4,615 nucleotides of DNA from a virus. Lineage: Duplodnaviria > Heunggongvirae > Uroviricota > Caudoviricetes. The stretch lies in the IMG/VR virus record IMGVR_UViG_2740892229_000014; one strand, given 5' to 3'. The notes beneath the pieces were generated by a model. That model saw nothing but the letters and a program-made list of their open reading frames with translations. It searched no databases and was not told where the DNA came from. Both the position numbers and the translations under genes were made by a program. Shown here piece by piece: positions 1,099 to 1,684 of this stretch. Numbering within the stretch: the stretch's first letter is position 1; each line of letters opens with the position of its first letter.

Positions 1099-1407
1099 TG
1101 TTCCACCGTCTGCGCATCCACCGGTGAAAACGTCGTGGGGTTATATTTCGCCCCGTTGCTCAGAATCGCCGTTTTCCCCGCATTTTCGCCGGTATACCCG
1201 CTGTCCCAGTTGCTCTTCAGTTTTTTCGCATTTTCTTCCGTAATACTGCCGGGGATCTCAATCACCCCGGACGGCCTGCCGCCATTTCTGAAAAAAGACG
1301 TTGAATTTGCCTGAATATGATGCCCCTGCGTGGCAGCCAGCCCGGCAGCATACACCGGCGGCAGCCCCACAAGCGGATGAAAAAAACAGTTAAACCGGTC
1401 GTGGATC
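1014..1407 (-). CDS. Phage portal protein, HK97-type, middle segment
   Basis: Frame open from 1406 to 1014: IHDRFNCFFHPLVGLPPVYAAGLAATQGHHIQANSTSFFRNGGRPSGVIEIPGSITEENAKKLKSNWDSGYTGENAGKTAILSNGAKYNPTTFSPVDAQTVEQLKMTAEIVCSVFRVPAYKIGVGQPPSSD. It overlaps in protein sequence with the segments on either side. Confidence 0.8.
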
Positions 1408-1684
1408 NNNNNNNNNNCTGTATTTTGCCCCGTTGCTCAGTATGGCCGTCTTCCCGGCATTTTCGCCCGTATATCCGCTGTCCCAGTTCCCCTTCAGTTT
1501 TTTCGCGTTTTCTTCCGTAATACTGCCGGGGACCTCAATCACGCCTGATGGTCGCCCGCCATTTCTGAAAAAATACGTCGAATTTGCCTGAATATGATGC
1601 CCCTGCATGGCCGCCAGCCCGGCGGCATACACCGGCGGCAGCCCCACAAGCGGATGAAAAAAACAGTTAAACCGGTCGTGGATC
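1141..1684. repeat. Imperfect direct repeat flanking an N gap: 1141..1407 vs 1418..1684 (267 bp, about 24 mismatches, ~91% identity)
   Basis: Aligned by eye base by base; both copies encode the same portal region with only 4 amino-acid differences (M/T, Y/S, V/I, G/S). Confidence 0.85.
1408..1417. other. Assembly gap (10 N)
   Basis: Run of exactly 10 n characters. Confidence 0.97.

Follow-up and report, generated by a model that had tools for sequence, protein, structure and literature searches.

The apparently duplicated segments in the window, by which we mean the whole stretch of 4,615 nt analysed here, do not represent a biological duplication; each pair consists of two versions of one region. 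We put the probability at about 90% that the window is an assembly artefact, in which an A version and a B version of phage head genes were placed in series across N gaps. The source would be the genome of a Shiga-toxin-type E. coli with at least two paralogous copies of the head module, one of A type and one of B type, and the window would be a short-read scaffold of this lambdoid-prophage module. As a stand-in for the source genome, we used E. coli strain 2013C-4991 (NZ_CP027355.1), which carries two lambdoid-prophage head clusters in different prophages, referred to here as copy A (L001) and copy B (L002). The underlying biology is already known: it is well established that lambdoid prophages sharing a chromosome exchange segments of their head modules, which differ from each other mainly by synonymous changes.

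Scaffold layout and the head-gene module

The window is made up of five contigs (c1 to c5; Table 1) separated by four spacers of exactly 10 N each, and a direct overlap of 82-267 nt lies on both sides of every spacer. According to the list of open reading frames, all long reading frames of the window are on the minus strand. The initial annotation, which dealt with one overlap in the portal gene and one in the capsid gene, had left out two facts, namely that there are four overlap pairs rather than two and that each of them sits astride 10 N.

Table 1 Features of the 4,615-nt window (positions in nt; L001 is copy A of strain 2013C-4991).
Feature	Position	Strand	Description
c1	1-162		Unit 2 of the copy-A tandem repeat; 100% to L001 6897-7058
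Spacer 1	163-172		10-N scaffold spacer
c2	173-1003		A alleles at 185-604, B alleles at 676-943; 64 variable sites, each A or B
Spacer 2	1004-1013		10-N scaffold spacer
c3	1014-1407		Pure copy A; 100% to L001 7885-8278, 92.4% to copy B
Spacer 3	1408-1417		10-N scaffold spacer
c4	1418-3107		B arms at both ends, middle mostly A/majority alleles; 64 variable sites
Spacer 4	3108-3117		10-N scaffold spacer
c5	3118-4615		Pure copy A up to the IS junction; 1498 nt, 100% to L001 9488-10985
Overlap pair 1	81-162 / 173-254		Straddles spacer 1
Overlap pair 2	919-1003 (c2, B arm) / 1014-1098 (c3, A arm)		Straddles spacer 2; portal
Overlap pair 3 (flagged initially)	1141-1407 (A arm) / 1418-1684 (B arm)	-	Straddles spacer 3; portal
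Overlap pair 4	2894-3107 (B arm) / 3118-3331 (A arm)	-	Straddles spacer 4; capsid
Repeat-containing ORF, 5' part	1-478	-	Downstream of the portal gene
Portal gene	475-2211	-	454 aa, PF04860; interrupted by spacers 2 and 3 with their duplicated arms
73-aa hypothetical protein	2157-2378	-	Between the capsid and portal genes; phrog_829, function unknown
Prohead protease-major capsid fusion	2423-4558	-	Peptidase_S78 + Phage_capsid; broken by spacer 4, 5' end cut by the IS
Target-site duplication CCGTCAGC	4551-4558		8 bp; the octamer flanks the IS on both sides in L001
IS66-family element ISEc23, left end	4559-4615		Starts with GTAAGCG; the scaffold ends in this multicopy element, 57 nt in

The portal protein of copy A matched PF04860 over profile positions 2-321 of 321 (E = 7e-81; 272 bits against a cut-off of 39), and the protease-capsid polypeptide scored 55 bits for PF05065 (cut-off 24) and 37 bits for PF04586 (cut-off 21); the same protease plus capsid architecture is on record for 645-aa products. 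With PF04860 and with Peptidase_S78 fused to PF05065, all above the Pfam thresholds, the module resembles HK97-type head genes. In HK97, the genes are arranged in the order portal, protease, capsid. The module in the window departs from this, as its capsid gene lies ahead of the portal gene; the gene order in both L001 and L002 is small terminase, large terminase, protease-capsid fusion, 73-aa ORF and portal. The exact sequence of the 73-aa protein is ubiquitous, being found in thousands of assemblies (6,922 blocks), and it supplied ten comparison loci.

Behind the portal gene, the module has an ORF with 54-aa repeats, which is fused to the portal in some annotations. Its ATG overlaps the portal stop codon as ATGA (475-478, minus strand). 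In every copy examined, NCBI calls the portal and this next ORF one "frameshifted" portal pseudogene, and the PHROG family phrog_2271 is an 859-position "portal" profile that spans both ORFs. Copy A has 3.7 units of the 162-nt (54-aa) tandem repeat (window 1-313, minus strand; L001 6687-7279), and c1 is exactly one 162-nt unit. Products of the repeat ORF elsewhere are 245, 353 and 407 aa long and differ by multiples of 54 aa (108 and 54); therefore, the number of repeat units varies among prophages.

The distribution of this locus was examined in complete E. coli genomes, where it is annotated as phage portal protein / phage major capsid protein. Matches to c4 were found in 1,250 of the 5,426 genomes, with up to 7 head-module places per genome, as well as in 92 phage records, mostly of Stx-converting phages. 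These data identify the module as the multi-copy head-gene cluster of STEC lambdoid prophages. Lambdoid prophages of EHEC/STEC, including Stx-converting phages, carry the same head module as the window at 97-100% DNA identity, usually in several copies per chromosome and with mosaic allele patterns between the copies. Compared with these prophages, the window shows no essential difference and contains no new gene content. The locus is contiguous and unduplicated in the complete E. coli genomes; the segments described as duplicated in the initial annotation are duplicated in no genome examined, and it is the scaffold that puts two versions in series.

Two head clusters account for the variable sites

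Copies A and B of strain 2013C-4991 are identical to each other over some stretches and 5-11% different over others. Three of the contigs (c1, c3 and c5, of 162, 394 and 1,498 nt) are 100% identical to copy A over their combined 2,054 nt. The contigs c2 and c4 also map on copy A, and the coordinates of c2 to c5 on this copy overlap. At 247 sites, at least one of the three sequences (window, copy A, copy B) differs from the others, and at every one of these sites the window holds either the A or the B allele, with zero third bases. The second head-gene cluster for which the initial annotation had proposed to search is thus present in this complete genome, and the two copies together cover every variable site. 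When the overlap pairs were typed site by site against L001 and L002, the members of a pair proved to be pure A on one side and pure B on the other, and the three B arms of the window are identical to copy B of NZ_CP027355.1. Each "duplication" therefore comes down to the A allele and the B allele of one region.

For c3, at least 99% identity was found in 124 complete-genome records, while c5 with its IS junction is matched at 100% in NZ_CP027355.1 and four other (sister) complete genomes, in which c3 is likewise matched at 100%. The best place for c4 in NZ_CP027355.1 is the copy-B prophage (98.5%), and its best natural match anywhere reaches 98.9%. Along c4, the alleles run B(24) A(18) B A(6) BB A B(12), with B alleles from 1418 to 1624 and again from 2743 to 3047, and mostly A alleles between them (1790-2552). 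A third c4-matching place exists in NZ_CP027355.1; it explains no site that A and B leave over. From these matches we infer that both copies come from one genome and not from a mixture.

The late region of the copy-B prophage was also inspected (L015, NZ_CP027355.1 236000-250000). It is of the usual kind and encodes a Q antiterminator, a tRNA-Ile, a SASA-family carbohydrate esterase, a holin and a lysozyme; no stx gene is annotated between the Q gene and the holin gene of this prophage in strain 2013C-4991, which is the position of stx in Stx phages.

Silent divergence and the ISEc23 insertion

The differences between the paired segments were recounted and analysed codon by codon. In the flagged portal overlap (pair 3), there are 24 differences in 267 nt, 22 of which fall in the in-register core of 264 nt (1144-1407 versus 1421-1684); read on the minus strand, they cause four amino-acid changes (T/M, S/Y, I/V and S/G). 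Third codon positions hold 17 of the 22 core differences, and the Nei-Gojobori estimates are 0.36 for dS and 0.023 for dN, giving a dN/dS of 0.06. The capsid overlap (pair 4) has 11 differences in 214 nt, 10 of them in a 213-nt core, where nine are at third positions and only one amino acid is changed (T/S), with a dN/dS of 0.04. These are exactly the numbers that the initial annotation had given (24 nucleotide and 4 amino-acid differences for the portal, 11 and 1 for the capsid), and the codon-aware estimation shows the non-synonymous changes to be in the minority, as it had claimed. Non-synonymous changes are far below the expectation from site counts (P = 1e-8 for the portal and P = 6e-5 for the capsid; P = 2e-14 for all four overlaps pooled). 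Both arms of the portal overlap and of the capsid overlap are open in frame.

The same pattern extends to the complete genes. In the overlaps, dN/dS ranges from 0.04 to 0.13. Between the full-length A and B copies, the value is 0.10 for the portal gene (62 differences in 454 codons), 0.13 for the capsid gene (108 differences in 641 codons) and 0.26 for the ORF that follows the portal gene. The earlier reading of two diverged homologues with purifying selection is correct: the mostly silent differences are the true divergence of two prophage copies under purifying selection. What the low dN/dS reflects is the long-term history of alleles circulating among lambdoid or inducible phages, not the present function of either copy.

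An origin of the differences in sequencing errors or in targeted hypermutation, by a diversity-generating retroelement or a deaminase, deserves hardly any credence. Nothing beyond the clustering of the differences speaks for it, while third codon positions account for 39 of the 47 differences (P = 3e-12), each of the six substitution classes is represented, and transitions and transversions are balanced (23 and 24). Furthermore, each variant base is already an allele of copy A or copy B in an independently sequenced closed genome, a match that by itself refutes such an origin. The initial annotation had rejected sequencing error and hypermutation, stating that the differences are not restricted to one base type, and on both points the results bear it out. 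The repeat pair of a diversity-generating retroelement was considered in particular and was rejected, as the differences are not confined to adenine and show the six classes and the third-position bias.

The right end of the window lies within an insertion sequence. In copy A, this ISEc23 element is 2,532 bp long, has GTAAGCG termini and is bordered on both sides by CCGTCAGC (L001 10921-13468); alignments of the window to IS-free copies end at 4558. Its annotation in NZ_CP027355.1 is a trio of tnpA, tnpB and transposase genes, with the transposase gene adjoining the end that matches the window. ISEc23 thus shows the marks of the IS66 family in its terminal inverted repeats beginning with GTAAGCG, its 8-bp target duplication and its tnpA-tnpB-transposase genes, and its role here is only to disrupt the capsid gene of copy A and to end the scaffold. 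The element sits in codon 9 of the protease-capsid gene of copy A, which is parted from its start codon and from the upstream terminase genes. Copy B has an intact protease-capsid gene of 645 aa, and the 454-aa portal frame is intact in both A and B. The initial annotation had concluded that both source copies look functional. This claim overreaches because ISEc23 splits the protease-capsid gene of copy A at codon 9; it is doubtful that copy A is functional.

Contig boundaries, alternative origins and possibly chimeric contigs

The boundaries of the contigs follow a strict rule. Without exception among the four junctions, the contig to the left of the spacer continues for exactly 60 nt after the last site that tells the two versions apart, and the contig to its right opens directly on the first base that differs. 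At the three junctions set by A/B differences, the last site and the contig end are 943 and 1003, 1347 and 1407, and 3047 and 3107, respectively; at the remaining one, the end of c1 (162) is exactly 60 nt past position 102, the last position at which repeat units 1 and 2 differ. Such boundaries would be produced by a de Bruijn assembler working at k = 61, which would have collapsed the identical stretches and retained the divergent ones as separate arms of the graph. If a graph node keeps only the final base of each of its k-mers, the allele-specific k-mers would begin at the first variant and extend k-1 bases beyond the last one, and the asymmetry between a 60-nt tail on the left and a first-base start on the right would arise because k = 61 graph nodes were concatenated inside the assembler. 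The scaffolder would then have laid both arms of four bubbles in series, being unable to merge them, and have written a minimum gap of 10 N between the unmerged arms. According to the Velvet manual, gaps under 10 bp are written as 10 N. The scaffolding here was presumably Velvet-like in behaviour, the assembler's name being our assumption; a literature search for the Velvet 10-N gap rule gave nothing usable.

When one arm per spacer is dropped, no matter which, the remaining 3,847 nt are collinear with copy A and of the same length as this reference. In this collapsed path, the 454-aa portal frame and the capsid frame of about 640 aa are both open again. Against the artefact reading, the outer ends of the scaffold break the 60-nt rule. 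On the right, the scaffold stops 57 nt beyond the IS junction. On the left, the first unit-2-specific site is at offset 74 of the repeat, and a prefix of 60 nt would put the start at offset 14, but the scaffold starts at offset 0. Other copies of the IS and of the repeat in the source genome may set these outer ends.

False duplications in assemblies are marked by diverged alleles that lie on the same scaffold, separated by a gap (Ko et al. 2022, PMC9516828), and homologous prophages are known to limit the short-read assembly of STEC (PMC10925052). The window displays a gap between the members of each pair, the same reference coordinates for both members, allele-specific variants and boundaries set by k-mers. 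It is like the heterotype false duplications of the former study (PMC9516828) in that two diverged versions were assembled apart and adjoin with a gap, and in that the result can pass for gene gain or partial duplicates. Unlike those cases, the two versions are most likely paralogous prophage copies on a haploid bacterial chromosome instead of diploid haplotypes, and the scale is one of hundreds of bases, set by k = 61. These results call for caution, since scaffolds of STEC and other many-prophage genomes can hold paralogous alleles in series across short N runs, and such serialised alleles mimic partial duplications, truncated genes and frameshifts for readers and gene callers alike. Two signs of the artefact can be recognised without reads: a 10-N spacer between near-identical flanks, and contig ends at a fixed distance of k-1 from the last variant.

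Other origins of the paired segments were weighed against serial placement by the assembler. Genuine tandem partial duplications of portal and capsid segments in a phage genome would account for the direct repeats of 85-267 nt and 89-95% identity that the sequence contains as given. Such an origin is very improbable, as every repeat junction is an N run with no sequence, and in 1,244 complete genomes, which together hold about 2,900 copies of the locus, c2, c3, c4 and c5 each find their match in a single ungapped piece, with no duplication. Tandem duplications would also break the portal and capsid frames, which are restored without one arm, and they are at odds with contig boundaries that obey k-mer arithmetic. 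Alternatively, the A and B versions may have come from two strains or phages, with one copy each, in a mixed or contaminated sample or a metagenome. A de Bruijn graph is blind to the distinction between a paralogue and a strain variant, and neither c4 nor c2 has an exact natural counterpart. However, the closed genome NZ_CP027355.1 and its four sisters hold copy A with the IS junction at 100%, copy B of NZ_CP027355.1 is identical to the window in all three B arms, and multiple copies per genome, up to 7, are usual in this group. A mixture of strains is unnecessary because one closed chromosome supplies both allele sets, and we regard it as quite unlikely.

The spacers, too, may have another origin: a contig-ordering tool may have lined up the finished contigs along a reference genome and joined them by spacers of a fixed 10 N, in place of the paired-read scaffolding of the assembler. 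Fixed-length spacers and untrimmed overlapping ends are typical of such a procedure, and the order of the contigs is perfectly collinear with the reference locus. Independent k = 61 contigs, however, would share k-1 bases at both ends, whereas the 60-nt tail is found here on the left-hand contigs only, which points to the concatenation of nodes inside the assembler and makes reference-guided ordering improbable. If it did take place, the software step would change and the biological conclusion would be the same.

Serial placement of A and B arms leaves the origin of c2 and c4 to be considered, in which A and B alleles alternate within a contig. In the switch region of c2 (550-735), no 100% match was found among about 2,900 natural copies, the best being 98.4%, and the same holds for the switch region of c4 (1570-1830), with 99.2% as the best; the c2 switch haplotype had no exact-pattern match in collections of genomes, metagenomes and viral contigs either (GTDB, JGI, viral). 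A search of the viral contigs for the exact sequence across spacer 3 likewise gave no match. Both main A/B switches cross shared stretches of at least 60 nt. Natural A/B mosaics do exist, for example JNE132847, and the "A" alleles in the middle of c4 are the majority alleles, whereas copy B of 2013C-4991 has a private patch at 2053-2161. A further observation runs against the artefact reading and also counts for genuine mosaics: within 104 nt of c4 (2639-2743), the alleles are B,B,A,B, a pattern that the choice of arms at k = 61 from the alleles of 2013C-4991 cannot yield. Therefore, the second copy of the source is not identical to copy B of 2013C-4991. On balance, we lean towards chimeric joins rather than genuine mosaics for c2 and c4, and the main conclusion is unaffected by this choice. 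More tentatively, the two contigs might represent a true second or third prophage copy in which recent gene conversion replaced segments with those of the co-resident copy A, in which case the window would record ongoing homogenisation between the prophages of one chromosome.

In the private stretch of copy B, 15 substitutions are clustered within the 5' portion of the portal gene (L002, equivalent to window 2053-2161). Neither the window nor any of the 11 further copies in the comparison has this patch, suggesting a short import from a more distant phage.
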